A stretch of 64,000 nucleotides of DNA, from IMG/VR virus record IMGVR_UViG_3300020156_000025, positions 25,985 to 89,984 of that record. One strand, written 5' to 3'. This document shows, in pieces, positions 1-17,035 of the stretch. Under the pieces are notes generated by a model, which was given only the letters and a program-made list of their open reading frames with translations, was not told the origin of the DNA and did no database searches. This DNA comes from a virus. Every line of letters starts with the position of its first letter. The first letter of the stretch is position 1. The translations under genes were made by a program, and so were the position numbers.

Positions 1-2
1 CC

Positions 3-2471
3 GCGGGTATGAGTGCCAAGGAGTCCACGACCGCCCTTGCCGACGTGGTGGATCTGAGCATTGCAGGGGAAATGGACATGGCGCGGGCGTCCGAGATCGT
101 GGTCGCCTCGCTTACCGCGTTCAAGCTGGAGGCGGAAAGCACGGCACGGGTCACGGACGTGCTCGCGCGAGCCGCCAACGCGTCGCCAGCATCCGTCAAC
201 GATCTCGGGGAGTCGCTGAAATTCGTGGCCCCCATCGCGCAGGCGCTCAAGGCCCCGATCGAAGACATCGGAGCCGCCCTTGCGATCCTCGCCAACAGTG
301 GGATCAAGGGAGGGAACGCGGGCCGCGGTCTGTCTTCCGTGATGGCGAAGCTGGTCGCACCGACCGCGGAGGCTAAGTCGATGCTGGACTCGCTGGGAAT
401 CTCTCTGGAGTCGATCAACCCGTCCATCGTCGGAATGGAGCGGGCGATGGCACAGCTTTCCAAAATGAACCAGCAGACGCTGGTGCGGATGTTCGGGGTA
501 GAAAACCTCGACATTGCCAACGTGCTCGCATCGAACGCGGACCGGATGGGCGAGTTCAGGCAGGCCATGTCGGACAGCACCATCACGGCGAGGGGGATGG
601 CGAAAGCCATGTCGGACACGCTGAAAGGGGACATGCAGGAGGCGAGCAGCGCGATCGAAGCGGTCCGCAAGGCAATCGGGAATCTGTTCAAGGGGGATCT
701 GCGTTCCCGGGTGCAGGGGTTCACGGAGTGGTTGCGGGAAAACCAGCAGGCCATCGTCGGGGTGGCGGACACGATGCGCGACCTTGCCCCTGTCGTGGTC
801 ACGGTGCTGGGGCACTACGTCGCGTTCAAGGGTTTGGCGATGGGGCTGACGCTCGGGAGGCAGGCCGTGGCGTGGGCTCTGGAAACCGCCGCGGTGGTGC
901 GGAACACGGCGTCGATCATGGCGAACGCCAATGCCCGCCGATACATGATGCAGGTCGGAATGTTCAACGCGGGTATTCCGATGGGGGTGGCCACGGCGCT
1001 CACGTCGAACGTGAGTTCGTTGTTCGCCGCCGCGTTCGGGGGAGGAGCCACCATTGCCGCGGTCAAGGCGGGATTGACGTTGGTGGGCAGTTCGGCCATC
1101 GCCGCCATCATCGGGTGGGGGCTGGGGAGTTACATCGAGTCTCAATTCAAGATCGGGGACCGGGTAGCCGCCGCGGTGTTCAAAACCTTCGATTCGCTGA
1201 ATGCCGCCGCGGACGATTCGATCAAGACGGTGCAAGGGATGATCGATGCGGCCAAGACGGAGGAACAGCTCGGTGAGGCCCGGGTGCGCGGGGAAAGGGA
1301 GCTTGCCAAATGGAAGGAGATTTCCAACCGGGCGGAGGACGAGTCGAAGACGCTGGCGGAGACCGTCGTGCAAACTTTGCAAAGACGGATGGAGCTGGCC
1401 GACCGGACGTTTGCGCGCAATCAGGCGAACCTCGCGCAGCAGCGGGAAGGTGCCGCCCTTGCCGAGGAGGAACTCAAGAGCAAGCAGGTCGCGCTCTACC
1501 ACGAGGAGAAGGCGATCGCGTTGCGCAAGTCTCAGCTCGACATGGAGAAGAGCACCCGGAGGAACGCCGTGGGCGTCAACCGGAATCTTCTGGAGCGGTC
1601 CGACGCCGGAACGAAGGAGGCGGCATACGATGCCGAGGAGCGTAGGATCACGTCGCTGGCCAATCACTACCGGACCCGATTCAACGCGGTGGCCGCGGCG
1701 GCGGGAGTGACAGTCATCAACGGGGACCGTGAGATCCGGACCGTGGACGGGGTGATCGCTTACTTCCGTGCCGCGATGCGCGCCGCGGGTGAGACGGGGA
1801 GCGCGGCGGTCCGCGGGGACGCCAGCCTGCATATCCTGACCAGATTCGCGCAGAGTGCGGACGCGATCATCCAAGCCCGGACGAAGCTGAACGAGACCGT
1901 CGCGAAGGACGAGAAGGCGGAGGAGAACGCGCTGCTCAAGAAGCGGGACCTGATGCTGGAGATCCAGATCGCGGAAGCGAAGGCAGCGGGGAACAACACC
2001 GGGGCGGAGAGGCTTGAGAGGGAGCTTCGCGTCTTGCAAGAGAAGCGCCGGATCATGGACGAGTTGAAGGTGTCGGAACGCGAAGCGACCGCCCTTGCGA
2101 CACGGAAGGTGGATGCGGAGATAGCGGCCAACCGACCGCCATCGGAGAGACCGGTGGACGTGGTGGCATCGTCGCTCCAGCAGGTAGGAGGCGGCGGGGG
2201 CTTCTTCATCGCGGGAACACAGAGCATCGGGGAGCGGCAGGTCCGGCTTGCGGAACAAGCCAACGCGCACCTTGCTGGAATCGCGGCCCGGTTGGGGGTG
2301 GGACTCTCTCCGGGAATCCTTCCGGGCGGGCCGCAGGTGACTGGATTGAACGGGCTCGGACGCACGCGGGAAACCGAATTGCTTGGACGGATCGCGGAGT
2401 TGCTGAACAGCATCGACGAACGCGGTAGGCGCAATCCCGGGAGCACGGCGCTCACGGTGGAAACACTCTAA
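3..2471 (+). CDS. Phage tail tape measure protein (5'-truncated by window)
   Basis: TP901-type tape-measure core (DLGESLKFVAPIA...ILANSGIKGGNAGRGL), long Ala-rich helical sequence, frame open to window start. Confidence 0.9.
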   Translation, partial: AGMSAKESTTALADVVDLSIAGEMDMARASEIVVASLTAFKLEAESTARVTDVLARAANASPASVNDLGESLKFVAPIAQALKAPIEDIGAALAILANSGIKGGNAGRGLSSVMAKLVAPTAEAKSMLDSLGISLESINPSIVGMERAMAQLSKMNQQTLVRMFGVENLDIANVLASNADRMGEFRQAMSDSTITARGMAKAMSDTLKGDMQEASSAIEAVRKAIGNLFKGDLRSRVQGFTEWLRENQQAIVGVADTMRDLAPVVVTVLGHYVAFKGLAMGLTLGRQAVAWALETAAVVRNTASIMANANARRYMMQVGMFNAGIPMGVATALTSNVSSLFAAAFGGGATIAAVKAGLTLVGSSAIAAIIGWGLGSYIESQFKIGDRVAAAVFKTFDSLNAAADDSIKTVQGMIDAAKTEEQLGEARVRGERELAKWKEISNRAEDESKTLAETVVQTLQRRMELADRTFARNQANLAQQREGAALAEEELKSKQVALYHEEKAIALRKSQLDMEKSTRRNAVGVNRNLLERSDAGTKEAAYDAEERRITSLANHYRTRFNAVAAAAGVTVINGDREIRTVDGVIAYFRAAMRAAGETGSAAVRGDASLHILTRFAQSADAIIQARTKLNETVAKDEKAEENALLKKRDLMLEIQIAEAKAAGNNTGAERLERELRVLQEKRRIMDELKVSEREATALATRKVDAEIAANRPPSERPVDVVASSLQQVGGGGGFFIAGTQSIGERQVRLAEQANAHLAGIAARLGVGLSPGILPGGPQVTGLNGLGRTRETELLGRIAELLNSIDERGRRNPGSTALTVETL

Positions 2472-2482
2472 CCTAGACACTC

Positions 2483-3250
2483 ATGCCCATAGACTATGAT
2501 ACGACGCTCCCGGGGGTGGTATGGCGGAATGGCCAGAAGCTCGCGACCTTGCTTGAGACCACGGGGGGTGAGGTGGTGTTCGACGACGTTGGGGTCGCTT
2601 CGGGCACGCTGGTCTATCAATGCATGTATGCGAACTCGGTCGCCCTTGTGGCTAGCTTCACCCGGCATCCCAGCTTCGCGTTCCTGAAACGGAAGAATGC
2701 CCGGATCGTGCGCGAGGAGGCCGGGATGGCGAGGGTGACGATCAATTTCGAGGGTATTCCGACGGGGGAAGAAAACGAGAACCGCAAGACCTATACGCTC
2801 CACGGGGGGACGGGAACGGAGCCGATCGAATCGCACACCCAGTTCGGGACTTTTGCAGGGAAGTGGAACGATCCCGCGACGTGGGTAAACGGTGCCCGGT
2901 TCGCCACGCAAGGGGAGGACAGGGGCAAGTTCTTGGGCTTCGTGGCCGCGCAGGGGGACGATGACCCGAATCCGAAAGCGGGGGTGCAGTCCTACTATGC
3001 GCCCACGCTGGTGTATTCGGAGGTGGAGCTGCGGTCCAAGGCGAACTCGTCGAGCATCGCGGTGAACATGAACAACCTAGGCAAGATCGACACGCCCCCC
3101 AATTCCGACGTGCTGCCGCAGGTGTCGTCGGGGAGGGACTGGCTGCTGACGGATTGCACGGTGGAGGAGGTGGGGGACGGGGTTCGGATCACCCGCCGCT
3201 GGAGATTGTCGGGACGGAACGGGTGGGACCCGGACATTTACGGAGATTGA
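2483..3250 (+). CDS. Putative tail/baseplate protein
   Basis: Directly after tape measure; beta-rich composition; no recognised motif. Confidence 0.55.
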   Translation: MPIDYDTTLPGVVWRNGQKLATLLETTGGEVVFDDVGVASGTLVYQCMYANSVALVASFTRHPSFAFLKRKNARIVREEAGMARVTINFEGIPTGEENENRKTYTLHGGTGTEPIESHTQFGTFAGKWNDPATWVNGARFATQGEDRGKFLGFVAAQGDDDPNPKAGVQSYYAPTLVYSEVELRSKANSSSIAVNMNNLGKIDTPPNSDVLPQVSSGRDWLLTDCTVEEVGDGVRITRRWRLSGRNGWDPDIYGD

Positions 3251-3253
3251 CCT

Positions 3254-4921
3254 ATGGCCGCATCTGCAAACGTGACGCTCGGGGGGAGGACCCGGTTGAA
3301 GGGATTCAAGGTGCCGGGACAACCCGCCCTTGAAGCCGCGTTGAACCGCTTGGCTACCGAGATCAATTCGATCCCGGACGTTCAGTTCGAGGGAGGACAG
3401 GGACTGGACGTGACGGAGCACAACGGTAAGATCGTTGTAGCATTGCGCAACGGTGCGCGGGGATGGCGTCCCCGTTACGAGCCGACGTTCGTGGACGGGA
3501 AGCTGCGCATCGGGCTAGGGACGGTGGGGTTGCACGCGGACGGGAACGGGGCGGGCGGGGTGGTCGAGCCGTATTTCCCTAGGTTCGAGGGGAAGGTGCT
3601 GAACCATGCGATCCCGCCCGAGCTGCCGGTGGAGCAGATAGACGACGGGGACAACAAGATCATCCTGCGCTGCTGTCTCTACGATTCTCGGATCGAGGTG
3701 GTGTCCGCGGAGGAGGACATGGACAAGGACGTGGGGGAGTGGATTATCACGCTCGCGACCTTTACCAAGGAGGGTGCGAAGATCTCGGACCTCCGGCACC
3801 TGTTCACTTCGGACGTGCTGATTCTGGACGCGTCGGAGTCGTGCGACATCGAAGGCTCGGACGATCCGGACCCGAGCGACGATTCCGACGGCGACGATAG
3901 CGACGATAGCGACGAGCCGCCGCCGTCCGATTCGGACGAGAGCGATGATTCCGACGATAGCTCGGGGAGCGGGGACGGGTGCTGCCCGGAAATCGCGCTC
4001 GACGCTACGGTGGTGAGTCCGGCGTCGCCGTTCTGTTTCTCCAGCGGGGATTCGCCGTATCCCTACTGGGTGGCGGGGTCGGTGAGTATTTCCAAGGCGT
4101 CCACCTGCGACGGATGCGAGGAAAAGCCCGTGTCGGTGCACGTGCAGGTGGGGGACGCGAGCACCAGTGCCAACCTGTTCCCGGGCGGTCCGCCCTTCAC
4201 GTTCCTGCTTCATCCGTCGTTCGGTTCGCCGTGCGCCACGGTCCCGGTGACGGCCACCATCGCTTCCCTTACCAGTGTGGCGGGGACCTGCCCGTGCTTC
4301 GCCACTAAGTCGGTGGACATCACCCTGCCCGGTCTGGAGCCGGACTGCGAATGCTCGGACGACTCCAGCGGAAGCTCCGACGATAGCGACGGAGGGGAGC
4401 TTCTGATGATGGCCCCGCCCGGGGAGATGATGCTGATGACGGAGGGTAGCGACGACTCCGCGCTCGATGACAAGGAGGCGGTGGTCGAGTCGTCCTTGTT
4501 CCCGACGGGGTATGCGGCGATGCGTTGCGTGGAGTCGCCGGAGACGTGGTTCACCGACACGTTCCGGGTGGAAATCACGGGGCGCGTCACGTTGCACCGG
4601 ATCGATGCAATGTTCGCCGACGTGTGCGATCCCGGGACGATCCGCGTTGTTTCCGCCGTGCCCGACTTGCCGCGACCTGTGGGATGTGTTGCACGCGAAT
4701 TCCCGCCGATGCACTGGAGTGTCTTGCTGAACCGCATGGTGCCGTCCTCGGAGGAGGGGGCGCATGTCGTGGTGCGCTGCGGATGGTTCTTGCGCCCGCG
4801 CAGCGTCATGGTCACGGTGGCCGGAATCCGCAAGGGCCGTTCGGGGCAGCGATTCGTGCCGAGGTCCAAGGAGGAATTCGACCGGAGCCAGGCGTTCTGG
4901 TCACAGCTCAAGGACCGATGA
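3254..4921 (+). CDS. Putative tail/virion protein with Ser/Asp-rich tracts, Cys-rich domain and tail-fibre-like C-terminal domain
   Basis: SDD/SD tracts at ~3850-3975 and ~4355-4390; many Cys; C-terminal CVESPETWFTD...IDAMF resembles domains at the ends of phage fibre proteins. Confidence 0.55.
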   Translation: MAASANVTLGGRTRLKGFKVPGQPALEAALNRLATEINSIPDVQFEGGQGLDVTEHNGKIVVALRNGARGWRPRYEPTFVDGKLRIGLGTVGLHADGNGAGGVVEPYFPRFEGKVLNHAIPPELPVEQIDDGDNKIILRCCLYDSRIEVVSAEEDMDKDVGEWIITLATFTKEGAKISDLRHLFTSDVLILDASESCDIEGSDDPDPSDDSDGDDSDDSDEPPPSDSDESDDSDDSSGSGDGCCPEIALDATVVSPASPFCFSSGDSPYPYWVAGSVSISKASTCDGCEEKPVSVHVQVGDASTSANLFPGGPPFTFLLHPSFGSPCATVPVTATIASLTSVAGTCPCFATKSVDITLPGLEPDCECSDDSSGSSDDSDGGELLMMAPPGEMMLMTEGSDDSALDDKEAVVESSLFPTGYAAMRCVESPETWFTDTFRVEITGRVTLHRIDAMFADVCDPGTIRVVSAVPDLPRPVGCVAREFPPMHWSVLLNRMVPSSEEGAHVVVRCGWFLRPRSVMVTVAGIRKGRSGQRFVPRSKEEFDRSQAFWSQLKDR

Positions 4922-6648
4922 TCTTCGATGAATATTTCGACAAGGTGGTGCTGATCGCGATGGACCCTGCGGGGGAACGCGCGGCAAGGGCCGCGGGGGA
5001 GATGGTGCGGCTGGGTCTGTCGGACAAGACGGAGATCGTGCGCGGGATGCCCGGTAACGAGATGGGCAAGCCGGGATGGTGGCCGAACGGACGGGGTGCG
5101 TGGGGGTGCTACCTGTCGCACTTGGCGCTGCTGATGCGGATGAAGCAAGAGGGCTGGGAGACGTTGCTGCTGCTGGAGGAAGACGTGGTGTTCCAAGAGG
5201 ACACGGCAACGCTGCTGCCCGAGGTGATGGCGTCGCTGCCCTCGGACTGGACGCAGTTGTATCTCGGGGGCCAGCACAGGGTGCCGCCGCACCGGCTGCC
5301 CGGAACGCCCGCCCTTGTGAGGGGGAGTAGCATCCACCGCACTCATGCATACGCGGTGCACCGGAAGGGGTTGAACCATTTGATCGCGCACCTGATGGAA
5401 CTGCCCGCGTTCCAACAGGCGAAGAAAGGCGGGACGAAGCTGCACATAGACCACCATTACGAGATGGCTCACCGGGCCAACCGGTGGAAGGTCTATGCGC
5501 CGTCGTTCTGGCTGGCCGGGCAGGGTGCGGGGTGGTCGGAGATACGGGCCAAGCAAGTGACCGCCGCGTGGTGGCACCGGAAGGAGACGCACCGCGAATA
5601 CCGCGGCTTGCCGGTGCTGCTGGGGGAGGCTGCCGCGGCCAACTACGGGAACGACGAAACGGAGAAGACCTTGCAGGCGATGGCGGAGGAGGACCCGAGG
5701 GAATTCGAGCGCATCCTTGTGGTTCTCGCGCAACAGGCGTTCCTGCATCAAACCTTGCCCGCGATCCGAAAGGTTCGACCGTGGCAACGGGCATGGCTAG
5801 AGGCCAATTGGCCCGCCGGGGTGGCGCAGCCCGATGATTTCGACCGACTGAGGGATTACCCGAGGGCCAAGCTGTTCGAGCATTCTTGGCTGAATCCCGT
5901 GCGCCGGAAAACCAGAATCGCAACCGAGAACGATAACATGACACCTGATATTTCGACAGCCGGAGGGGGCAGCCCGTTGTTCGTGTTCAGCTCGCCGCGC
6001 AGCGGAAGCACGCTGCTGGTATCCATACTGGACGGGCACGGGGACATCACGATGAACGGGGAACGCCGGGATTTCCTGTGGAGTCTCCGCAATCTGTGGG
6101 ACCACCGGGGGGCTTTGCAGAAAAACTCCCCGCGGGCGTTCCTTCCGATCGACGAGCAGGTGCAACAGGGGAACTTCCCTTCGCACGTGAACCATTCGAC
6201 GGAAGAGTCGTGGGCGGAGGGGGTGCGGGCGCTGTTGCGCGGGTGGGTCAATCCGGGGGAAGGGGACCGTTGGTGGGGGATGAAGGACGTGCATGTCGCC
6301 AAGCTAGGGATGGGTATGGGGGTCGAGATGTGGAGCTGGCTCCAGACCGTGATGCCCGATGCCCGGATCGTGTTTCTGACGCGCGACACGGGAGCGGTGG
6401 AGAGGAGCATGGAGCGGACGCTGGCGTGGTGGGTGCCTAGTTACGGGAACTGCATCGGGAACTGTATGCGCAAGGTGAAGGTGCAGCAGAACGCCTTCCG
6501 GGAATATCACGCGCTCAACCCGTCCACCACGGCACTTGTGGATTACGAGGACCTGACGGATTTCGCCCGCTTGCAGGCGAGCCTAGGGACCATCGGGGTC
6601 AAGCTCGATCCGGAGGTGCACGCGGAAAGAATCGCGGTAAGATTGTGA
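4918..6648 (+). CDS. GT25-like glycosyltransferase fused to a C-terminal sulfotransferase domain
   Basis: GT25 motifs FDKVVLI, GAWGCYLSH, LLLEEDV, THAYAV; sulfotransferase 5'-PSB loop FSSPRSGSTLL and IVFLTRD; ATGA overlap with upstream gene. Confidence 0.8.
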   Translation: MIFDEYFDKVVLIAMDPAGERAARAAGEMVRLGLSDKTEIVRGMPGNEMGKPGWWPNGRGAWGCYLSHLALLMRMKQEGWETLLLLEEDVVFQEDTATLLPEVMASLPSDWTQLYLGGQHRVPPHRLPGTPALVRGSSIHRTHAYAVHRKGLNHLIAHLMELPAFQQAKKGGTKLHIDHHYEMAHRANRWKVYAPSFWLAGQGAGWSEIRAKQVTAAWWHRKETHREYRGLPVLLGEAAAANYGNDETEKTLQAMAEEDPREFERILVVLAQQAFLHQTLPAIRKVRPWQRAWLEANWPAGVAQPDDFDRLRDYPRAKLFEHSWLNPVRRKTRIATENDNMTPDISTAGGGSPLFVFSSPRSGSTLLVSILDGHGDITMNGERRDFLWSLRNLWDHRGALQKNSPRAFLPIDEQVQQGNFPSHVNHSTEESWAEGVRALLRGWVNPGEGDRWWGMKDVHVAKLGMGMGVEMWSWLQTVMPDARIVFLTRDTGAVERSMERTLAWWVPSYGNCIGNCMRKVKVQQNAFREYHALNPSTTALVDYEDLTDFARLQASLGTIGVKLDPEVHAERIAVRL

Positions 6649-7208
6649 TGCAGGTGTTCCGGATCAGTGACGCGCCCCGCGAGGGGGAAACCCCGATAAA
6701 ACCCGTGTGGGGGTTGGGGAAGGTGCGGGGGAATTGCTCGGCGCAGGCGTCGGCGATGGCCGCGGTGCTGCGGACGGACGTGTATCCGGCGGTGGTGCTG
6801 GAGCACGACGCGGAGCGTCTGCGGGAGGGGTGGCCGGATTTTGCACAATGTGCAAACGCGGGCATGGACTGGTTGTGGTTGGGGGGTTCAACCATCTGGT
6901 GCGATGAGCGGGGGGAGGAAGTCCGGGACAGGCCGATGCCGTGGATGCCGTCTCCGGTGGCGGGGGTGGCGAAGGTGGACGGGCTCTACACGACGCACGC
7001 GGTGGCGATCCTGACGCCGGACGGGGCGATGCGGGCGCTGTGCGCCGCACTGCAAGGAATCCGCAAGGGGTGGCCGGTGGACGTGGCGATCATCATGGAG
7101 TGCAGGCATATGGGCTGGGAACGCTGGTGCGTGACCGAGCCGTGGTTCTGCCAGCGGGGGGTGAACCGCAGGTGGACGGACAAACCGCTGCCGCCGCCCT
7201 TGCCATGA
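6645..7208 (+). CDS. Divergent GT25-like glycosyltransferase
   Basis: VVLEHDA, WLWLGG, YTTHAVAI, WPVD match GT25 motif order. Confidence 0.55.
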   Translation: MMQVFRISDAPREGETPIKPVWGLGKVRGNCSAQASAMAAVLRTDVYPAVVLEHDAERLREGWPDFAQCANAGMDWLWLGGSTIWCDERGEEVRDRPMPWMPSPVAGVAKVDGLYTTHAVAILTPDGAMRALCAALQGIRKGWPVDVAIIMECRHMGWERWCVTEPWFCQRGVNRRWTDKPLPPPLP

Positions 7209-7945
7209 GGACTCTGGTGCTGTCCTGCGACACGCTGGGAATGGAGGTGATTCCGACCGTGATCCGCTCGGTCGAACGGCACACGGAGGGGGCGCTGCGG
7301 GTGGTGGTGTATTCACGGGGAATGCATGCGGAGGGGTTCAGGAGGGGTAGGCTGGAGGTGGAGTTCCGCAGACCGAGGGAAGAATTCGGGCAAGCCAAGG
7401 GGCGGATCGCCGCGGAAATGTTCGACCGCTTGTGGTGCATTGCGGATTTGCAGGACACGGAACGGGTGATGATTCTGGACTGGGACCAACTGGCGGTCGG
7501 ATGTCTGGAGGAGCTGTGGGACGTGGAGATGACGGGGCAATTCGGGGCGTTCGTGCGCTCGCCCTTCGGCAAGACGTTCAAGTCGTCCCGGTGGATAGGG
7601 GAAGGTTACTGGGCGCAGGACATGCCGGGGGTGGAGCAACCGTTTTTCCGTTTCGGGGGGATGTTGAATCTGGAGGAGTGCCGGAAGGCGGGGATTTTGC
7701 AAACCGTGCAAGGGTTGGCGGGGAATGGATCGACCGAGCAGGCGTTGCTGGCCCACGCAATGGGAGGGAACTACGCGGGGTTGGACCGGAAATGGAACAA
7801 TCTTGTCAAATACGAGGGCTTGGTTCCGGATGCCCGCATCCTGCATTGGCACGGGGGGAAGAAGCCTTGGAGCCACGACGGGCTGGACCATGCGGAGTTG
7901 TGGCACGCGGCCCGGTGCTCGTGGAGGGAAATCCGGTTGACTTGA
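7205..7945 (+). CDS. GT8-like glycosyltransferase
   Basis: RVMILDWDQL (DxD), GMLNL, EQALL, LDRKWN, ILHWHGGKKPW are GT8 signatures; ATGA overlap. Confidence 0.8.
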   Translation: MRTLVLSCDTLGMEVIPTVIRSVERHTEGALRVVVYSRGMHAEGFRRGRLEVEFRRPREEFGQAKGRIAAEMFDRLWCIADLQDTERVMILDWDQLAVGCLEELWDVEMTGQFGAFVRSPFGKTFKSSRWIGEGYWAQDMPGVEQPFFRFGGMLNLEECRKAGILQTVQGLAGNGSTEQALLAHAMGGNYAGLDRKWNNLVKYEGLVPDARILHWHGGKKPWSHDGLDHAELWHAARCSWREIRLT

Positions 7946-7972
7946 AGTGTCGGGGTGGGGCATGGTCCGGGC

Positions 7973-10324
7973 ATGGAGCTGGTCCTCAACCTTAACACCG
8001 TCACCTTCGTTCAAAAGGTCGATGTGAGTCTGGAAGTCACGGGGTTTTCTTGCAAGGTGAGGGATACCTTGCAGCTCGACGTGAAATTCTCGAACGGTCT
8101 GGCGCTGGTCGCCCCGGGGGAGGAAGTATCGCTGGTGTTCGGTATCAAGGAGACGCTGGCCGACACGGAATTCCTGGCCTATATCGCGACGTGGACGGAG
8201 GTGGAGGCCGGACATTACCGGGGTCAGTTGTCGCTCAACACGGCGAATCTGGTGGGGGCCATCGGGAGTGCCGAATCGCTGGCCGCGCTCGGGGAGTTGA
8301 CGTGGAGCACGGACGGAGGGGAGCAATGGCAGTCCAGTCCGACGCTGAACGTGACGATCCGGGGGGACGTGGTGACGGGGCTGGAATCCGCGCCCTTGAA
8401 CATGCCCACGGCGAACGGGGTGCCGTCGCCCATCGACATTTCGGGGGAGCCGTTGAACGAGACGCTGGCAATGGCGTCGATCAACTCCACGCTGGTCGAT
8501 GCGGTGGACGGGGAGACCCTGACTTTGAACGGGGTGGTGTTCACGTTCCGGGATTACCCCGCGAGCGAGCCGCTCGACGTGCTGATCGCCATAGGGGACC
8601 CGGGTGCCACGCGGGCCAACCTTGCCGCGAAGCTGGTCACGTATGAGGCCAACACGCGCGTGATCGCGACGAACGGGTCCGGGATCTCGCTCACGTCCCG
8701 GGACCGCGGGGTGGACGGGAATGCCATGACTCTTTCGACGGACTCCGCGGGGTTTGAGGTCACGCCTTTCGCGGGCGGGGTGGACGGGACGCCGGGAGGA
8801 CGGGGGCAGTTGGCGTATTCGGACAACGGACTGACCTACGAATGCTCGGACGATTTTCCTTACACGTGGGTGGGGCATGCGACCGGGAACTCGTCGCAAG
8901 GGGCGCAGGGGGAGGCCGATGCCGGGAAGCTGGCGGAATTCGCGGCGGACGGGGCACTGGCCGCATCGGAGAAGTTCACGGTCCGGGACAACACGCCGCC
9001 CGCCGGAACGTGGGATGTCCGGTTGCGGTCATCGTCCGGGGTGCAGCGTGTCGAGTTCCAGCAGAACGCTCATGAGCTTCTGGTCGCCGCCCCGACGTTG
9101 ACGGGAGACCTGACGCAGACGCACCAGAACCGGAGTGGAACGATTCCGGCGGCGCGCTCCTACGCGACCGAGGCAGCCGCCCTTGCGGCCAATTCCTCGG
9201 GCAATACCAAATTGCTCAAGAACGGGGAGATCTACGAGGACGTGGCGAGCGGGGTGGTGCGGGCCGTGCCCGGATACCCCACGGTGACGACATCCAGTCC
9301 GGCAAGCGGAGGGTCCGTCACCTTGACCGATCTGGTGGATTCGCTGTATATCGTCAATTCTTCAGGGGTGTTGGCCGCGCTCACGGTGAACTTTCCGGGG
9401 GTGTCGGCGTGCCGGAACGGGCAGACCATCAGCATCCGGTTCGACTGCAACGTGACCGCACTGACGTGGGCGGCGGGATTAGCCACGATCCTTAACGCGC
9501 CGGTGTCGGCGGGGGCGAACCAGACATACACCTTCGTCTGCTACGGTGTGTCGGGACTGGGCAGCCCCGTGTGGCAGTGCGTTTCGCGCACCTTCCCCCA
9601 GTCGGAGGCGATCGAATCCTTGTGGGACATGCACCGCGTGGTGCAGTTGCCGTATTTCACTTCCGTGGTATCGGGGACGGCCTCAAGCTCGGCGGCTTTG
9701 CAGGTCCTCGGAATCGGGGTGCACTGCGGAACGTCGAACGGGAGTTACGCCCGCGGGATCGTGGGTGCATCGACGAATTTCGATCCGCAGACCACGGGAG
9801 GAAACATGCGCGCGGGGCAGCGCATGCGCTTCTGCGCCGTGGGGGAGTTCGTCGCTCTGGCGGTGGCCAACGGCGGGGTGCTCCGCATGCTGGTCGGGGC
9901 CACGGTCGCCGCTCCGCCCCTTGCCGACGCGAACGCGCTTTCCGCCGCGGGCTTCGGGGTCGAGTGGGCCTACGACGGTGCGAACTCCCGCATGCAGGTC
10001 AGGTTGGTGAGCCACAACGGCACGACCTACCAGACTTCCGCGTGGGCTCCGTTCCGTGCGGAACACAACCGCAGATGCGCGATCATTCTGGACCACGTGG
10101 GGGACGGGACGCTGAACCTTTACGCGGCGGAAAACGGACCGACGGACCGCGGGTGTCCGAGGCCCAATCCGGTCGCGGTGGCGACGTTGTTCGGGGTGCC
10201 CACGGGGACACTCGGCGGGGGCTATGTCGCGTTCGACGCCGTATCCGCATCCGCCGCATCCGCACCGTCCTTCGGATCGTCGCTGAGGTTCAAGCTCAGG
10301 GAGGTCAGGCTGGTGCTGGATTGA
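7973..10324 (+). CDS. Tail fibre / receptor-binding protein
   Basis: Large Gly/Thr/Ser/Ala-rich beta-type protein at end of tail module, with an adaptor-like N-terminus. Confidence 0.65.
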   Translation: MELVLNLNTVTFVQKVDVSLEVTGFSCKVRDTLQLDVKFSNGLALVAPGEEVSLVFGIKETLADTEFLAYIATWTEVEAGHYRGQLSLNTANLVGAIGSAESLAALGELTWSTDGGEQWQSSPTLNVTIRGDVVTGLESAPLNMPTANGVPSPIDISGEPLNETLAMASINSTLVDAVDGETLTLNGVVFTFRDYPASEPLDVLIAIGDPGATRANLAAKLVTYEANTRVIATNGSGISLTSRDRGVDGNAMTLSTDSAGFEVTPFAGGVDGTPGGRGQLAYSDNGLTYECSDDFPYTWVGHATGNSSQGAQGEADAGKLAEFAADGALAASEKFTVRDNTPPAGTWDVRLRSSSGVQRVEFQQNAHELLVAAPTLTGDLTQTHQNRSGTIPAARSYATEAAALAANSSGNTKLLKNGEIYEDVASGVVRAVPGYPTVTTSSPASGGSVTLTDLVDSLYIVNSSGVLAALTVNFPGVSACRNGQTISIRFDCNVTALTWAAGLATILNAPVSAGANQTYTFVCYGVSGLGSPVWQCVSRTFPQSEAIESLWDMHRVVQLPYFTSVVSGTASSSAALQVLGIGVHCGTSNGSYARGIVGASTNFDPQTTGGNMRAGQRMRFCAVGEFVALAVANGGVLRMLVGATVAAPPLADANALSAAGFGVEWAYDGANSRMQVRLVSHNGTTYQTSAWAPFRAEHNRRCAIILDHVGDGTLNLYAAENGPTDRGCPRPNPVAVATLFGVPTGTLGGGYVAFDAVSASAASAPSFGSSLRFKLREVRLVLD

Positions 10325-10361
10325 GGATTGACTCGGGCGGGCTGACAGGGGATGAAGGGGC

Positions 10362-10688
10362 ATGCCAAATCCCATTGTCTCCATCAGTCCGGTCGATGAT
10401 GCCAACGCTTGCTTGCTGCCGGTGCAGCCGGGACCGGAGAAGACATGTGCCGTGGCCGTGGCGTGCGAGGACGCATCCGATGCCGCGGTGGTGGATTTCA
10501 CGTGGGAACTCCAGTTCAAGCCCGCCGGGGCCGCGACGTGGCACGGTATCCCGGAGGAGGAGGGGGGCACGGCAACGCGGACGGGTCCGGGGCTGGTGGA
10601 GTTCAGTCCCACGCACCTGTGTGAATATCGGGTGGCGGTGACGGCGCTCGGAACCGGCGGTGCGGCGGTGTTCGTGACCACGAACTAG
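10362..10688 (+). CDS. Hypothetical protein (possible virion-associated)
   Basis: ORF in operon context. Confidence 0.5.
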   Translation: MPNPIVSISPVDDANACLLPVQPGPEKTCAVAVACEDASDAAVVDFTWELQFKPAGAATWHGIPEEEGGTATRTGPGLVEFSPTHLCEYRVAVTALGTGGAAVFVTTN

Positions 10689-10753
10689 AGGGGGGTGGAA
10701 TCGGGGCTTGGCATGATGGTCGGGATAGTCTAGGTATCCTGACCATTCAAGCC

Positions 10754-11425
10754 ATGAGACCTAACCGATGGATCGCGCTGGCCGCGTGCATGCTCGCCCT
10801 TGCGGGATGCGCGGGAACACAGAAGGTAGCCCCGCGGGTAGTGCAGGCCGAGGTGCCCAAGGCACGGGCCGTCGCGCCGGTCGCCGGAAAGGTGCGGGAC
10901 AACGCTCATGCCGTGGAGGTGTCCGCGGCCAAGGTGGAGGTGACGGCGGCGAACGTGTCGCGGGAGGCGAAGGACTTGCGCCGCATCGTGGGCTCGCTGA
11001 CGACGGAAGCGGAACGCCTGCGGAAGGTGGAGGCGATGACGGCGCAGGAGAAGGCCGACCTGTGGGCCAAGCTCACGGAAGTGTCCCGGTCCTCGGCGCT
11101 GCTGGAGTCCTACGTGGAGGAACAGAACAAGGCACTGTCGGTCCATCACGAGCAACGCAGGCAACTGACGGTGGCGATCGCCGAGCTGGAGGGGGCGGTG
11201 CGGGAAAAGGACACGGAGGTGGCGGGTCTGAGGTTGCAGCTCAAGGACGAGGAGGAGAGCGCGAAGACGCAGGCCGAGTTCGCCCGCACGGAATCGCAGC
11301 GGGCCGACCGGGAAGCGGCGAAGGCGGCGACCTCGAAAGGGACCGCGAAAGCCTTGGGCTGGGGGCTGGTAGCGGTGTCGCTGCTGCTGGCAGGGGCATG
11401 CGTGGTGATCTATCTCCGCAGGTAA
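10754..11425 (+). CDS. Candidate unimolecular spanin (lipoprotein, coiled coil, C-terminal TM)
   Basis: Lipobox LALAG-C, long heptad-like helix, C-terminal hydrophobic segment LGWGLVAVSLLLAGACVVIYL-RR; next to holin and endolysin. Confidence 0.65.
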   Translation: MRPNRWIALAACMLALAGCAGTQKVAPRVVQAEVPKARAVAPVAGKVRDNAHAVEVSAAKVEVTAANVSREAKDLRRIVGSLTTEAERLRKVEAMTAQEKADLWAKLTEVSRSSALLESYVEEQNKALSVHHEQRRQLTVAIAELEGAVREKDTEVAGLRLQLKDEEESAKTQAEFARTESQRADREAAKAATSKGTAKALGWGLVAVSLLLAGACVVIYLRR

Positions 11426-11456
11426 ACGGCTGGAGGAAACAAAACGAACCGACATT

Positions 11457-11855
11457 ATGAAATTCGACACGCTGAAATCGAACTGGCGGGAGTTGCTGGG
11501 AATCCTGCTGACGCTAGGGTTGCTGGTCGTGCTCGCCCTTGCGCTGGGATCGAGGGAGGTGGCGGGGGGTGCGCCCCCGGAACCGCTGCCGGAGGGATAC
11601 GGGGAAGGACGGCCTTACTTGGCTCTGATCCTGACGTTCCTCTTGGGGATGGTGGGGAACATGCTCCAGTTCTGCCTGTGCCTCGGGATGGCATGGTTCG
11701 GGTTGCGGGTGACGCTGCCGGAATCGGCCAAGGTGATTTTCTCCCGCACGTTCGACACGTGGTGGAAGGGGGGGACGACGCAGGAGCATATCCGGATCGG
11801 GCTGGTGGCCGCGGCGGTGCTCGCCCTTGTCGCCGGGTTGGTGTCGATCAACTGA
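11457..11855 (+). CDS. Putative holin
   Basis: Small protein with 3-4 hydrophobic segments immediately before endolysin. Confidence 0.6.
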   Translation: MKFDTLKSNWRELLGILLTLGLLVVLALALGSREVAGGAPPEPLPEGYGEGRPYLALILTFLLGMVGNMLQFCLCLGMAWFGLRVTLPESAKVIFSRTFDTWWKGGTTQEHIRIGLVAAAVLALVAGLVSIN

Positions 11856-11862
11856 CAACCTT

Positions 11863-12600
11863 TTGCAAACCGTGCAAAAACGCCTGCGACCGAATGGACT
11901 GGAGTGGTCATTGACGGTGCTCACCGCGTTGGCGTGGGGCACCTTGCTGTTGTTCCTGATGCAGACGTGCAAGGGGGCCACGGGGAACATTGCAGCGGGA
12001 CCGCTGGAAATCTCCCCGCAGGCGCATGCGCTGATCGTCAAGCATGAGACGGGAGGGGAAGCGTATTACCGGCGCTACCTGTCGAAGCCGTCTTGGCCGG
12101 GGGGTCAGAGCGGGGTCACGGTGGGCATCGGCTACGATGTGGGGTATAACACGAAGGCGCAGGTGCTGGCCGATTGGAAGCGGCTGCCGGAGGTGCAGCG
12201 GAACGCGCTCGCCACGGCTGCCGGGGTGAAGGGGGCGCTGGCCAAGCAACGTGCCCGGGGGTTGCGATGGTTCGGGGTGCCGTGGCCGCAGGCCAAGGAG
12301 GTGTTCGAGGCGCGGAGCATGCCCCGGTTCGGGGTGCTCGTGGCCAAGGCGTTCCCGGGAGTGACCACGATGCACCCGCACGTTCAGGGGGTGATGCTGT
12401 CGCTGGGGTTCAACCGGGGGACCGCGATGGCGGGGGCGTCCCGGCTGGAGATGCGGCAGTGCCGGGAGGCAATCCCGGAGAACCCGCGCGCCTTGCCGGG
12501 GTATATCCGCAGGATGAAAAGGCTGTGGGTCGGGAAGGGACTGGACGGATTGTTGCAACGGAGGGAAGAAGAAGCTTGCCTGATCGAGCGGGCCTTGTAG
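11863..12600 (+). CDS. Endolysin, pesticin/T4-lysozyme-like muramidase with N-terminal TM segment (start uncertain)
   Basis: HETGG...PSWPGGQSGVTVGIGYDVG, SLGFNRG, GLLQRREEEA. Confidence 0.8.
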   Translation: MQTVQKRLRPNGLEWSLTVLTALAWGTLLLFLMQTCKGATGNIAAGPLEISPQAHALIVKHETGGEAYYRRYLSKPSWPGGQSGVTVGIGYDVGYNTKAQVLADWKRLPEVQRNALATAAGVKGALAKQRARGLRWFGVPWPQAKEVFEARSMPRFGVLVAKAFPGVTTMHPHVQGVMLSLGFNRGTAMAGASRLEMRQCREAIPENPRALPGYIRRMKRLWVGKGLDGLLQRREEEACLIERAL

Positions 12601-12667
12601 GGTGGGCGTCGGTTTCCCGCGCCGGGGGGTGCACAAGGGGAGCCGTCCATAAGAGACTAAAGTCACA

Positions 12668-12710
12668 CCCCGCGCGCATGATCCAAGGGGAGGCATGCCG
12701 CGGGGTGTTT
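12668..12710 (+). terminator. Possible hairpin ending the late/lysis operon
   Basis: CCCCGCG-CGCATG...CATGC-CGCGGGG inverted repeat followed by TGTTT. Confidence 0.3.
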
Positions 12711-12745
12711 CGTGCCCGCGTGTCACACTCTATAATACGGCGTGC

Positions 12746-12889
12746 CGTGTAACCGCTGCTAACCCCCCGGAACCGAAAATAATCGGATTTCGCCGTCAAG
12801 TAATACTCAATGAGTTACGACGATTTATACCCCTCGTTAATGCAAACTTTGCAAAATCGACTTGCTAAACGAAACCCGGACTGTATCCT
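12746..12889 (+). promoter_or_regulatory. Composite early-promoter module, copy 1
   Basis: CGTGTAAC...TCAATGAGTTAC...TGCAAACTTTGCAAAATCGAC-TTGCTA-N16-TATCCT; same architecture at 36334 and 40838. Confidence 0.7.
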
Positions 12890-12916
12890 GTGGACACATT
12901 CGATCTGCTTCCGCCC

Positions 12917-13252
12917 ATGACTCTCGCCACTAAAATCCGCCGCCGCTTGTCCGCCCTTGAACGGGTGCTGAATCGCCGCAACCCTTACAGCCATCCTAGC
13001 TATGGACGTGCGTATGATACGTCGCTGAAAATTGGAGGAAAATTCGTTTCCCTGACTCGGCTAGGTGTTACCACTGAACTGTTCGAGGTGGGGTTCGATT
13101 ACACGGAACTCTCCGTCTATTCGGTATACGTGAAGCCCTCCGATGAGCCTCTGGCCACCAGCCAATTCATGGTGTTCGGCGCAAACACGCCATCCGAGGT
13201 TCTTTCAATCCTGAACCAATACTGGCCTTCCGCGCTCTGCCGCCCCGCCTGA
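12917..13252 (+). CDS. Hypothetical early protein
   Basis: ORF right after promoter module. Confidence 0.55.
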   Translation: MTLATKIRRRLSALERVLNRRNPYSHPSYGRAYDTSLKIGGKFVSLTRLGVTTELFEVGFDYTELSVYSVYVKPSDEPLATSQFMVFGANTPSEVLSILNQYWPSALCRPA

Positions 13253-13302
13253 TTTTTGCACACTGTTCAAAACCGCCTGAAACCCTCCACCCTCACACGA
13301 CC

Positions 13303-13575
13303 ATGCAAACGATTTCCGGATACTACGAATTGAAAGGTTCCACGTGGAACATCGAGGCCGAGGTGGAGACCTCGGAGGTGGCATGCGGGGTGGAAGCCCG
13401 CCGGGGCCGCGAAGGTGCGGAAACCCGCGACCTGACCCGCACCGCACCGACCGCCCTTGCCGACGTGACCGTCCGCCGCGTGCTGCCCGACGGGCGCACC
13501 GGGGAGATTGTCCGGGGAGAGGAAAAACAGGAACTCGCCGCCGCGCTGCTGGAGCAGCTTGCGGAAATGTGGTGA
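13303..13575 (+). CDS. Hypothetical protein
   Basis: ORF with A/C-rich leader. Confidence 0.55.
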   Translation: MQTISGYYELKGSTWNIEAEVETSEVACGVEARRGREGAETRDLTRTAPTALADVTVRRVLPDGRTGEIVRGEEKQELAAALLEQLAEMW

Positions 13576-13584
13576 CGCAAAATC

Positions 13585-13613
13585 TTGCTAAACGAAACCC
13601 GGTGCCGCATGCT
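13585..13613 (+). promoter_or_regulatory. Sigma70-like phage promoter
   Basis: TTGCTA-AACGAAACCCGGTGCCG(17)-CATGCT. Confidence 0.7.
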
Positions 13614-13657
13614 GCGCACCGTTCGCAAATCGAAACCGACCGACCAAATACCGACCG

Positions 13658-15307
13658 ATGAGTGCAAAGAGTGATTATACCGATACGATGGACGTGCATA
13701 ACCTAGCCGGGGTGGGGGTGTTCCTGACCCGGACAAGGGAACCTAACCGCACGATCGACGCCTTGCGGGAACTGGCGCAGAAGGACGGGCAGCCGTTCGA
13801 GAAGTGGGACCTCGCGATGGGGTGGCAGAAGTGGGTGATGCGCAATAACGTCATCGTGCACGAGAAGGACGGGTTGACGGAGCCGCTGGCCGCGCTCAAG
13901 AGCGTCGGGGGGATGCCGACGGGGACGCCCAAGACCGGGTGGAGCGTGATGGAGTGCATGCACCCGTTCCTAGGGGGGTATTCGGGACCGCCGAATCCGA
14001 CGATGGTGCAGGTGCTTCGGCACTATGCGTTCACTTTCGCGGAAACGGGGCAGCGGCTGGTGATCGTGGCCCCGGAGGGTTTCACGCTGCCGCAGGAACT
14101 CCAGCACGATCTGGTGGTGGTGGATTATGACCTGCCCGACAAGGAGGAGCTTGACGGAATGCTGGACGCCGCCCTTGCGTTCGCGTTCAAGGACCCCCGG
14201 CAGAGGGCGAGCGTGTTCACCGCGGAGCAGCGTGAAACGCTGGTCGGGAACGCGTCGGGAATGACCCGTCTTGAGGCGGAGGGGGCGTTCGCGGAAGCCG
14301 TGGTGCGGAACCGGAAACATTTGTCCGACCCGATCCCGAACCTGCCCTTCGAGCAGATGAACCGGGTGGTGATGAGCGCCAAGACGCAGGTGGTGAAACG
14401 CTCGGAGGTGCTGGAACTGATGCCGGTCGGGAACATGGCCGAGGTGGCGGGACTGGAGAATCTCAAGAGCTGGGTGCGCCGCCGCAAAACCTGCTTCACG
14501 AAGGCGGCGGAGGCCGCGGGGGTTGACCGCCCGAGGGGGTGCGCGCTGATCGGACCGCCGGGAACGGGAAAGAGTCTCTCGGCCAAGGCGATCGCGCACG
14601 AGCTGGGAATCCAGTTGATCCGCTTCGACGTGGGGCGGGTGTTCGGTTCGCTGATCGGGCAATCGGAACAGCGGGTGCGCGCCGCGTTGAAACACTTGGA
14701 GGCGATGGCCCCGTGCGTGGCCTTCATCGACGAGGTGGACAAGGCGGGGTTCGATCCGCGCCAAGGAGGCGGGGATTCGGGGGTGGGGAAAAGGGTGATG
14801 GGGTCGATCCTGACGTTCATGCAGGAGACCACGCAGCCGGTGTTCTGGCTGTTCACCGCGAACCGGGTATCCGGGATGCCGCCGGAGATGCTCCGCAAGG
14901 GGCGTCTGGACGAGGTGTTCGCCGTGATGCCGCCCACGTCGGCGGAACGCATGCAGGTGCTGCGCTTGCACCTTGCCAAGCGGAAACAGGACCCCGACAA
15001 GATCAAAGGACTGGAACGGGTGGTGGCCATCAGCGAAGGCTACGTCCCGGCGGAAATCGAGGCCGCGGTGAAGGAGGCCGTGGTGCGCGTGTTCGCCGAC
15101 GGGATCGAACTGACGGCGGACATCCTGTGCGAGGAATTGCAGAACATGAAACCGATGAAGGATGCCTTCCCGGAGGATTTCGCGGAGATGAACGCGTGGG
15201 CGGAGAACAACGCCCGGCACGCGTCGGAGCCGGAAACGGAACTCGCCGTGGTGATGGTGAACCCGACGCAAGGGGGAGTCCGCCGCCGCAGGGGGGGCAA
15301 CCTGTAG
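13658..15307 (+). CDS. AAA+ ATPase, Ycf46-like
   Basis: Walker A GPPGTGKS, Walker B FIDEVDK, SRH TANR...PPEMLRKGRLDE; degenerate N-terminal AAA domain. Confidence 0.9.
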   Translation: MSAKSDYTDTMDVHNLAGVGVFLTRTREPNRTIDALRELAQKDGQPFEKWDLAMGWQKWVMRNNVIVHEKDGLTEPLAALKSVGGMPTGTPKTGWSVMECMHPFLGGYSGPPNPTMVQVLRHYAFTFAETGQRLVIVAPEGFTLPQELQHDLVVVDYDLPDKEELDGMLDAALAFAFKDPRQRASVFTAEQRETLVGNASGMTRLEAEGAFAEAVVRNRKHLSDPIPNLPFEQMNRVVMSAKTQVVKRSEVLELMPVGNMAEVAGLENLKSWVRRRKTCFTKAAEAAGVDRPRGCALIGPPGTGKSLSAKAIAHELGIQLIRFDVGRVFGSLIGQSEQRVRAALKHLEAMAPCVAFIDEVDKAGFDPRQGGGDSGVGKRVMGSILTFMQETTQPVFWLFTANRVSGMPPEMLRKGRLDEVFAVMPPTSAERMQVLRLHLAKRKQDPDKIKGLERVVAISEGYVPAEIEAAVKEAVVRVFADGIELTADILCEELQNMKPMKDAFPEDFAEMNAWAENNARHASEPETELAVVMVNPTQGGVRRRRGGNL

Positions 15308-15401
15308 GAGGATTTCAACCGGGGGACGCGGGGCGGCGGTTTTCTGTAAGGGAACGTCTTTGCAAACTTTGCAGAATCCGCCCCGTCTCCCCCGTATTTT
15401 A

Positions 15402-15430
15402 TTGCTAAACGAAACCCGATACCCTAACCT
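15402..15430 (+). promoter_or_regulatory. Sigma70-like phage promoter
   Basis: TTGCTA-AACGAAACCCGATACCC(17)-TAACCT, with a TGCA box at 15359. Confidence 0.65.
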
Positions 15431-15482
15431 GTCCTTGTCGCCCGCCAAACCGCGACTTTCCACTCCAAACCGCCAAACCGCC

Positions 15483-16112
15483 ATGCCTGCGATCCAGACC
15501 CTCACGGGGGATGTCAATCTCCGCGCCGCTTCCGCCAAATGCCACGTGTGGCATGCGTCCGCTCCGGGAACCGCCACGTTCGGATTCGCGGAAGCGTTGC
15601 TCTTCGTCAACGCCCGCAACGGGAGGGGGGCGAGCACGCTGTCGATGCCCGATCCGCAGGGTTCGGTGCTTGGATTCTCCCCGGACATCGGGGGGAAGAT
15701 GACCGCCGCCGCGTATGACGTTTGCGAAGGGGAAATCCTGAAACTCATATCATCCGTGCGTTCGGGGCCGATGGCGGTGCACCAGTGCGCGACCATGTTC
15801 CTGCGGGTGCGGGCCAACGCCGCGGTGCAGCGGGTGGACATGCCGCTCTTGAACGATCCGTCGTGCAGGTTTACCGGGGGCTTCATCCAAGGACCTTTCG
15901 ACGTGCTGACGCCCGAGCAGGTGGACGCGCTGGAAGTCAAGGTGCCCGAGGCGTTCCGCCGCCTGATGATGCCGGGGCCGATGACGGAGCGGCTGTTCCG
16001 TGTCACTGTCCTGCAAGAGGCGAAGGCGGAGGTGGTGGCCGTGACCATGCGCGACGGGAAACAGGTGCAGGTGGAGACCGCCGTGCGCCGCCGCAAGCTC
16101 CGTCTCGACTGA
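15483..16112 (+). CDS. Hypothetical protein with C-terminal RRRKLRLD tag
   Basis: ORF between AAA ATPase and DUF1257 gene. Confidence 0.65.
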   Translation: MPAIQTLTGDVNLRAASAKCHVWHASAPGTATFGFAEALLFVNARNGRGASTLSMPDPQGSVLGFSPDIGGKMTAAAYDVCEGEILKLISSVRSGPMAVHQCATMFLRVRANAAVQRVDMPLLNDPSCRFTGGFIQGPFDVLTPEQVDALEVKVPEAFRRLMMPGPMTERLFRVTVLQEAKAEVVAVTMRDGKQVQVETAVRRRKLRLD

Positions 16113-16158
16113 GGACCGATTTTCAACCGTAACCAAACAATAACCAGAGCCGACACTT

Positions 16159-16650: not shown

Positions 16651-16700
16651 AACCCGCCCGCCCTTGACTCCCGCCCTCTCATCTTCCGATCCGAATTCTC

Positions 16701-16898: not shown

Positions 16899-17035
16899 CC
16901 CTTTCTCGCCCGGCCCCCCGGAGACAACACAGTGAACGCGGGGAGGGGTAACACCCTCCAGAACCCCCCGGAATCCCCCTCCCCGCTTCACCCTTCCCTT
17001 TCCCTTTTCCTTTCCACACCAACCGCCAAACCACC

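Follow-up and report, generated by a model that had tools for sequence, protein, structure and literature searches.

The 64,000-nt stretch of phage DNA analysed here (bases 25985-89984 of the 89,984 bp record IMGVR_UViG_3300020156_000025; hereafter the window) carries a cassette of genes for glycan-modifying enzymes, directly downstream of the gene for a 555-aa protein with serine- and aspartate-rich tracts that is most likely a tail fibre. The enzymes are a 576-aa fusion of a GT25 glycosyltransferase and a sulfotransferase, a 187-aa protein and a 246-aa GT8 glycosyltransferase (Table 1). With modest confidence, we favour the interpretation that these enzymes put a glycan, here probably a sulfated one, on the serine tracts of the fibre. 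Judged by gene neighbourhoods, the link between enzymes and fibre is strong, and the interpretation as a whole is partly supported. An earlier note on this DNA had placed the tract protein, the fusion and the GT8 at 3254-7945, and the gene boundaries and domain matches agree with it. It had also described the genes as coupled by ATGA overlaps. Such overlaps are present at two of the three junctions (4918-4921 and 7205-7208), but the third reads GTGA at 6645-6648, or TGATG if the start codon is the ATG at 6648.

In a screen of the plus-strand proteins of the genome for S+D / S+T stretches, a serine-containing tract was seen in the 555-aa protein only; the two further proteins that passed did so solely through Asp/Glu runs. 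The full-length AlphaFold2 (AF2) model of the protein is poor, with a mean predicted local distance difference test (pLDDT) score of 57.2 and residues 67-220 below 50. Tract 1 is mostly below 50, tract 2 is below 50, and the beta strands of the middle domain reach 58-78. Direct searches with the protein found no match in viral contigs and, apart from itself, only P0122, its sole database relative by this route. The five parts of the window protein recur in P0122: an N-terminal part, an SD/SG tract, a Cys-rich domain that starts with Cys-Cys-Pro, another SD/SG tract and, at the C-terminus, a domain 31% identical to that of the window protein over 147 residues. Its gene, on a 67 kb contig (L002), is followed by those of a 468-aa GT25-Sulfotransfer_3 fusion and a 257-aa GT8, which are 41% and 42% identical to the window proteins, respectively. 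When all L002 open reading frames (ORFs) of at least 80 aa in 17 kb were compared, only these three matched the window genome. Since the gene order is also the same, and the GC contents are 40% and 64%, the comparison identifies the tract protein, the fusion and the GT8 as a unit common to otherwise unrelated phages. The association of the enzymes with the tract protein that the earlier note had drawn is thus seen again, both in the L002 unit and in the two-way linkage described below, and enzymes that have the tract protein as acceptor would be expected to travel with it in this way. L003 (58% GC) has a third copy of the protein, which is truncated.

The 34 kb contig L042 (IMGVR_UViG_3300021141_000030, 57% GC) has 16 ORFs collinear with the window phage, including the AAA+ ATPase block at window 13658-17212. 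Its gene order is tape measure, a homologue of the 255-aa protein that precedes the tract protein in the window, Ser-tract protein, a 225-aa plain GT25, a 471-aa ORF and the AAA+ ATPase that lies at 13658 in the window. By ORF comparison, L042 lacks the sulfotransferase, the GT8, the 187-aa protein (p187) and the 789-aa gene of the window; p187 is absent from L002 as well. Because L042 keeps the fibre and the GT25 and lacks the rest, these two are identified as the conserved core, and the sulfotransferase domain, p187, the GT8 and the 789-aa gene as additions in the window lineage. L042 is a natural comparison that has neither sulfotransferase nor GT8.

The family to which the 555-aa protein belongs is detectable only through a profile of its C-terminal domain (C-domain), and not by direct searches. 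The profile, A2, comprises 22 C-terminal domains, among them that of the window protein itself (P0121, E 5.8e-42, residues 401-554), which is 24-37% identical to the 21 other members. Among 1.84 billion representatives, A2 matches 1171 clusters at E <= 1e-3 and 746 at E <= 1e-10; these are clusters at 50% identity, from contigs of 37-66% GC. The domain is C-terminal in the 150 matches listed. In 122 of the 147 listed matches that were scored, the 30 residues just upstream contain at least 30% Ser; the 25 without such a tract include four domain-only fragments (P0236, P0238, P0252, P0255). The corresponding region of the window protein (residues 362-408) is rich in S/D/E/G, with more Asp and less Ser than in most members. 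The C-domain model is a beta-sandwich (AF2 pLDDT 86.4). Foldseek found nothing for it in the PDB at E <= 0.001, and the named matches in a viral library are tail proteins, a minor tail protein, tail-fibre-like proteins and collagen-repeat proteins. The top ranks in VIA-align are the C-terminal domains of the Pam1, LKA1 and phi297 tailspikes, the R-pyocin and AP22 fibres and H-type lectins, with Z scores of 5.4-7.7 that are rated middling and a theme that is consistent.

The reading of the 555-aa protein as a tail fibre follows from this resemblance to fibre and tailspike end domains and from the gene neighbourhood. Homologues of the 255-aa protein lie directly upstream of Ser-tract genes in L042 and L187 (45% identity), L178, L197, L165 and L166. 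The gene before the homologue encodes a 793-aa tape measure protein in L042, identified by PHROGs, and is an ORF of tape-measure size in L178 and L166 (1186 and 1169 aa). As a side observation, the edges of the Ser tract are often marked by a Cys-Cys or Cys pair, as with the Cys-Cys-Pro at window 3980-3988, in L002, L003, L051 and L075, and at many fusion loci. Among 139 family representatives of at least 200 aa, the last tract starts with Cys-Cys in 22 and with Cys in 73. Such Cys pairs may be disulfide staples that keep the fibre chains in register.

The earlier note had suggested a survey of glycosyltransferases and sulfotransferases against Ser-rich proteins, and co-occurrence is seen from both sides. 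From the fibre side, 33 of the 61 viral loci chosen by the C-domain alone have a GT25 gene downstream on the same strand; where at least 2.5 kb of downstream DNA is present, the count is 31 of 49, and after clustering at 60% identity the C-domain is GT25-linked in 8 of 15 clusters. From the enzyme side, loci were collected with A1, an alignment of 10 GT25-sulfotransferase fusions, which gave 80 viral and 79 cellular-genome loci. Ser-tract ORFs were counted up to 4 kb from GT25 and on its strand, and had to have at least 150 aa and a stretch of 20 residues with 12 Ser or more. Such an ORF is present in 52 of the 80 viral loci chosen by GT25 alone, and at 18 of 18 viral GT25-sulfotransferase loci. 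After clustering, 13 of 19 clusters have one, as do all three fusion clusters. The density of such ORFs is 0.131 per kb near GT25 and 0.004 per kb elsewhere in the same loci, an approximately 30-fold difference. The C-domain of the tract protein lies just upstream of GT25 in 34 of 161 loci. These 34 ORFs have 136-1277 aa, and the shortest, from L065, runs off its contig. In each, the N-terminal part varies and is followed by Ser-rich low-complexity sequence, after which comes the C-domain. Half of the eight scanned C-domain loci that lack GT25 have other glycan, methyl or sulfo enzymes above cut-off downstream: a GT7C/GT2-like plus pyruvyl-transferase protein in L166, a GT9 in L167, a methyltransferase with a sub-threshold Stealth region in L168, and a Sulfotransfer_4 followed by Caps_synth/GT32 in L185.

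Poly-Ser proteins that lack the C-domain are present at many fusion loci, often with a tract that starts after Cys or Cys-Cys, so that the link is to Ser tracts and not to one protein family. Fusions stand beside one or two such proteins in the viral loci L011-L014, L019-L024, L033, L040, L053, L059, L068, L070 and L074. The same pairing is found on contigs of metagenome-assembled genomes (MAGs) from Phycisphaerae, Gemmataceae and Planctomycetota (L121, L123, L125, L128, L151). This suggests a second acceptor family, in the latter cases possibly of prophages or of phage contigs binned into MAGs. Asp-rich tracts go with a sulfotransferase in the window, L002 and L003, but a general connection was dropped since other fusion loci have plain poly-Ser. 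A tblastn search of deposited phages with a marine family member (L027) gave no matches.

The fusion consists of a GT25 domain (residues ~1-225), a linker (~226-345) and a Sulfotransfer_3 domain (~353-547). The GT25 domain matches PF01755 above the cut-off (25.7 bits against 24), over residues 60-108 only. The Sulfotransfer_3 domain matches PF13469 (56 bits against a cut-off of 27, residues 353-547) and is the sole such match in the genome. PHROGs gave one weak glucosyltransferase match (phrog_2835, E 0.0035). The nearest solved relatives of the A1 profile are COLGALT1, procollagen galactosyltransferase 1 (1.8e-14), and TPST1 (1.6e-12), with further matches of the sulfotransferase domain to TPST2 (2.5e-9), one more protein (1.2e-8) and NodH (1.2e-7). 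Both nearest relatives modify proteins, which fits a protein acceptor and also opens the alternative of direct protein sulfation. In GT-A enzymes, an acidic DxD-type motif is the metal and nucleotide-sugar site. The fusion has an E-E-D-V motif from residue 87, in which E-E-D (87-89) aligns with E-D-D of COLGALT1, and E87 and D89 are invariant in the 10 A1 sequences. Sulfotransferases bind 3'-phosphoadenosine 5'-phosphosulfate (PAPS) through a 5'-phosphosulfate-binding (5'-PSB) loop and the Arg and Ser of the 3'-phosphate-binding (3'-PB) site. Here, PRSGST is found at 360-365, and S362, S364, R489 and S497 are invariant in A1. The GT8 matches PF01501 with 43.5 bits (cut-off 24.3), and has D-W-D at 92-94 and HWHGGKKPW at 214-222, in accordance with the GT8 hallmark motifs DxD and HxxGxxKPW. 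Judged from these alignments, the cofactor motifs of the GT25, sulfotransferase and GT8 domains are intact. The cassette enzymes look soluble, as the highest Kyte-Doolittle hydropathy over any 19 residues is no more than 1.16. The phage encodes neither adenosine 5'-phosphosulfate (APS) kinase nor PAPS reductase; a PAPS supply by the phage was therefore rejected, and sulfation would depend on PAPS from the host.

The third gene had been called GT25-like in the earlier note. Its product, p187, has no Pfam match at E <= 0.1 and no PHROG match, and the resemblance is carried by leads only. An hhalign comparison with A1 is weak (probability 8.7%), although it pairs L-E-H-D with L-E-E-D and T-H-A with R-T-H-A. 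The nearest Atlas clusters are viral 'GT25' proteins (feature score 0.97, TM 0.79-0.82), of whose members only 14-30% carry PF01755.

Among deposited sequences, tblastn with the fusion found two uncultured megaphage records only, with 24% identity over 36-38% of the query. The first viral match to the fusion, L001 (211 kb, 35% GC), was set aside as uninformative. The interdomain linker of about 110 residues (window 5590-5950) is present in the window fusion, P0003, P0006 and P0007 and missing from the 468-aa forms. GT25 matches in Verrucomicrobiota contigs reach into it (query residues to ~320-350), and there are weak linker matches in L091 and L086.

In the mechanism that we propose, the 555-aa fibre would consist of an N-terminal attachment part, two disordered acidic tracts that flank the Cys-rich domain, and a lectin-like beta-sandwich as C-terminal knob. 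The enzymes would be made together with the fibre from the late operon, in the cytoplasm, and would decorate the Ser tracts before assembly. The GT25 domain could start an O-linked hexose on Ser, the fused sulfotransferase domain could then sulfate this sugar with PAPS from the host, and further growth or branching of the glycan could be the work of the GT8 and p187. This would give the tail tip a stiff stalk with a strong negative charge, similar to mucins or proteoglycans. We infer which protein is the acceptor, which sugars are added, in what order the steps occur, where the sulfate sits and what the modification does for the phage.

Several findings weigh against this interpretation. GT25 is lacking in 18 of the 49 C-domain loci with enough downstream DNA, and in the other four of the eight scanned GT25-less loci the downstream matches are below cut-off (L178, L180, L212) or absent from the one ORF examined (L203). 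On the enzyme side, the threshold used leaves 28 of the 80 viral GT25 loci without a Ser-tract ORF, and the link is weaker in cellular genomes (18 of 79 loci overall, 5 of 12 fusion loci). Many of the loci are close relatives, so that raw counts overstate their independence. With its many Asp, the tract of the window protein would itself fall short of the required 12 Ser in 20 residues. The C-domain reaches only middling scores in fold comparison (Z <= 7.7), and sulfation would draw on host PAPS, as the phage lacks an APS kinase. GT25 and GT8 are best known from lipopolysaccharide (LPS) core synthesis; the LPS enzymes are also soluble, so that topology cannot separate host glycans from phage proteins as targets. 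Moreover, accessory genes are known to insert behind tail-fibre genes.

The main alternative is that the enzymes remodel envelope glycans of the host (LPS, capsule or a sulfated exopolymer), either to mask the receptor against superinfection or to keep progeny off debris. The siting next to the fibre gene would then reflect co-evolution of receptor-binding and receptor-modifying functions, or a site that tolerates accessory genes. We regard this alternative as unlikely, though worth serious consideration. GT25 is an LPS biosynthesis protein by its Pfam description, and a role in LPS core synthesis is known for GT8 too. The combination of GT25 with Sulfotransfer_3 is found in more than 100 cellular proteins of Planctomycetota and related genomes, and the cassettes that follow the fibre gene differ greatly in their enzymes, as is usual for accessory genes. 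According to PMC7356697, a member of the Verrucomicrobiota makes sulfated glycosaminoglycan-like exopolymers. Yet this alternative leaves unexplained why the neighbouring protein nearly always has a Ser-rich tract (in 122 of 147 listed matches, and at 18 of 18 fusion loci), and why tract protein, fusion and GT8 move jointly between unrelated phages. In addition, the genes overlap late structural genes, and no integrase or resolvase was found in the phage genome, which makes lysogenic seroconversion unlikely.

The likeness to protein-tyrosine sulfotransferases raises the question whether Ser or Tyr hydroxyls of the fibre protein are themselves sulfated by the sulfotransferase domain, with the glycosyltransferases acting separately on the same protein. 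Such a protein O-sulfate appears improbable. TPST1, TPST2 and one more protein of this kind are the best solved matches, ahead of NodH, and the tracts are very acidic, which are the surroundings that TPSTs prefer. However, there is no Tyr in either tract, and to our knowledge there is no Ser-O-sulfotransferase. PF13469 is broad, and the TPSTs may just be its best-represented solved members. The fusion to a glycosyltransferase rather suggests consecutive steps on one glycan. We give still less credence to the absence of any functional link, in which the tracts would serve as flexible linkers only, and the enzymes, encoded by accessory genes, would have targets of another kind such as DNA or small molecules. 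Ser-rich linkers are indeed common, and other glycan-type genes are scattered outside the tail module. This is hard to reconcile with the enrichment of Ser-tract ORFs near GT25 or with the three-gene unit in common with L002. QueD, QueE and FolE-type genes are known from 7-deazaguanine DNA modification, and the phage already has them. As the cassette genes also overlap late structural genes, DNA modification by the cassette was held unlikely; we know of no GT25 or GT8 enzyme that glycosylates DNA.

If the enzymes do act on the fibre, the glycan may serve as a shield or as a mimic of sulfated polysaccharides, as the earlier note had suggested. A further idea is that of a proteoglycan-like fibre. 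An anionic brush of sulfated O-glycans on the Ser/Asp tracts could mimic sulfated polysaccharides that verrucomicrobial or planctomycete hosts make or capture, and the cell would bind or reel in the fibre as food or as self. In a variant, the TPST-like domain would sulfate the protein itself, which would make this the first bacterial virus with a system for protein O-sulfation. Both versions are speculative and rather doubtful. The sole hint at a host from these phyla is that cellular homologues of the fusion come from them.

Table 1. Features of the cassette and its surroundings. Positions refer to the window, or to the phage record where marked genome; L004 denotes genome bases 1-20000.
Feature	Position	Strand	Remarks
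Tape measure protein	1-2471	+	PF10145, E 9.8e-29; 20 PHROG tape-measure families
255-aa post-tape-measure protein	2483-3250	+	conserved; fold without match
555-aa Ser/Asp-tract protein	3254-4921	+	probable tail fibre and probable acceptor; C-domain family member
Acidic Ser/Asp tract 1	3827-3991	+	residues 192-246; 14 S and 20 D in 55; ends in Cys-Cys-Pro
Cys-rich middle domain	3992-4336	+	residues ~247-361; common only to window, L002 and L003
Ser/Asp tract 2	4337-4477	+	residues 362-385 (6 S and 6 D in 24); short third stretch 397-408
C-terminal beta-sandwich	4451-4918	+	conserved, defines the family; alignment A2
576-aa GT25-sulfotransferase fusion	4918-6648	+	PF01755 and PF13469
187-aa divergent GT25-like protein	6645-7208	+	leads only
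246-aa GT8 glycosyltransferase	7205-7945	+	PF01501, E 3.8e-11
789-aa protein of unknown function	7955-10324	+	
Sulfotransfer_2, sub-threshold	genome 188-952		L004
Methyltransferase	genome 964-1599		L004
897-aa pectate-lyase-like beta-helix protein	genome 2238-4931		L004
QueD, QueE, FolE-type genes	genome 5000-6955		L004
DUF3431 protein	genome 11024-11815		L004
GT11-like gene	genome 17711-18397	-	25.5 bits, cut-off 23.9; between protease and capsid genes

The phage record has a CheckV completeness of 100, ends classed as linear and a GC content of 64%. Its genes are almost all on the plus strand, with high third-position GC. The terminase, portal, prohead protease and major capsid genes lie upstream of the window, and no tRNA was found in the phage genome. 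The phage looks like a lytic siphovirus type, judged by the presence of a tape measure protein and by an ORF listing in which the interval from capsid to tape measure has no ORF of at least 400 aa, although sheath families were not searched for specifically; sheath proteins are about 400 aa in size. The tape measure ORF is 1038 aa in full (genome 25339-28455) and starts 645 bases upstream of the window. A megablast search with window 1-12000 found no close DNA relatives among deposited phages. In a promoter and terminator scan of window 1-13000, the counts equalled those of shuffles, so that a single operon is neither supported nor opposed.

The Pfam search gave no matches for the 255-, 555-, 187- and 789-aa proteins. 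An assignment of the 255-aa protein as distal tail protein was not adopted, since it has no Pfam, PHROG or PDB-profile match. The cassette had been placed between tail and fibre genes by the earlier note. The tape measure gene lies upstream, but the downstream 'fibre' of 789 aa is not identifiable as such. The 789-aa protein has no PHROG match, its Atlas leads all score below 0.8, and no homologue is present in any fetched locus. Its assignment as a fibre was not adopted for these reasons; it is possibly a second fibre or receptor-binding protein, and the 555-aa tract protein looks more like a fibre than it does. Further downstream, a 223-aa protein (window 10754-11425) has an N-terminal lipoprotein-type signal, with Cys after a hydrophobic stretch, a long coiled-coil-like middle and a hydrophobic C-terminal segment. 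By its translation it resembles a one-piece spanin; if so, a lysis block would begin right after the tail genes. Upstream of the window, within genome bases 1-20000, further glycan-type genes occur among the virion genes.

Were the proposed modification to be true, a very large and widespread fibre family of uncultured phages would be glycosylated by fast-changing cassettes of neighbouring enzymes. A subset of these phages would add sulfate, which is not described for any phage particle in the literature searched. It would provide a post-translational layer on host recognition, particle stability and the interaction with mucus, exopolymers and immune systems. It would also yield testable acceptor-enzyme pairs for glyco-engineering, as the L002 and window cassettes are compact enough for co-expression. 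The evidence for self-glycosylation of phages that the analysis met, in PMC12619734, concerns capsids and tail tubes of Mycobacterium phages. Self-glycosylation is thus the known kind to which the cassette would belong, and sulfation is a potentially new element.

The full-text search of one literature collection found no description of a sulfated virion glycan, in agreement with the earlier note, nor of an O-glycosylation system for serine-rich tail fibres. The cellular GT25-Sulfotransfer_3 fusions of Planctomycetota and related bacteria, which are uncharacterised, have the same two-domain layout and are 29-46% identical to the window fusion in the best BLASTP segment. They differ in that a Ser-tract ORF is nearby at only 5 of 12 loci, and some of the contigs may be phage DNA. 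COLGALT1 and TPST1/2, as the nearest solved relatives of the two fusion domains, are both protein-modifying, with a similarity that is at the family level only. The acceptor of COLGALT1 is hydroxylysine in collagen and that of the TPSTs is tyrosine, whereas the phage tract protein has neither collagen repeats nor Tyr in its tracts.

A parallel on the acceptor side was seen by the earlier note in the staphylococcal Sdr proteins. We know of no sulfation in the Sdr system. In these surface proteins, Ser-Asp-rich tracts are O-glycosylated by SdgA and SdgB, according to PMC3794999 and PMC8561734. The tracts of the window protein are likewise rich in Ser and Asp and accompanied by putative dedicated enzymes, but they are irregular and have no strict SD dipeptide repeats, and the enzymes match GT25 and GT8 and are unrelated to the Sdg family. 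The analogy is therefore loose.

On the phage side, the likeness is to the virion O-glycosylation of Mycobacterium phages. According to PMC12619734, phage glycosyltransferases glycosylate the virion of the phage that encodes them, at the C-termini of capsid and tail-tube subunits. The principle of phage-encoded glycosyltransferases that act on the phage's own virion proteins would be the same here. In contrast to the Mycobacterium-type layout of acceptors, the genome screen detected no serine-containing tract in the capsid or other plus-strand proteins apart from the 555-aa protein. The candidate acceptor sites of the window phage are instead internal low-complexity tracts of a fibre-like protein, and the enzymes are a GT25 and a GT8, with a sulfotransferase fused to the former.

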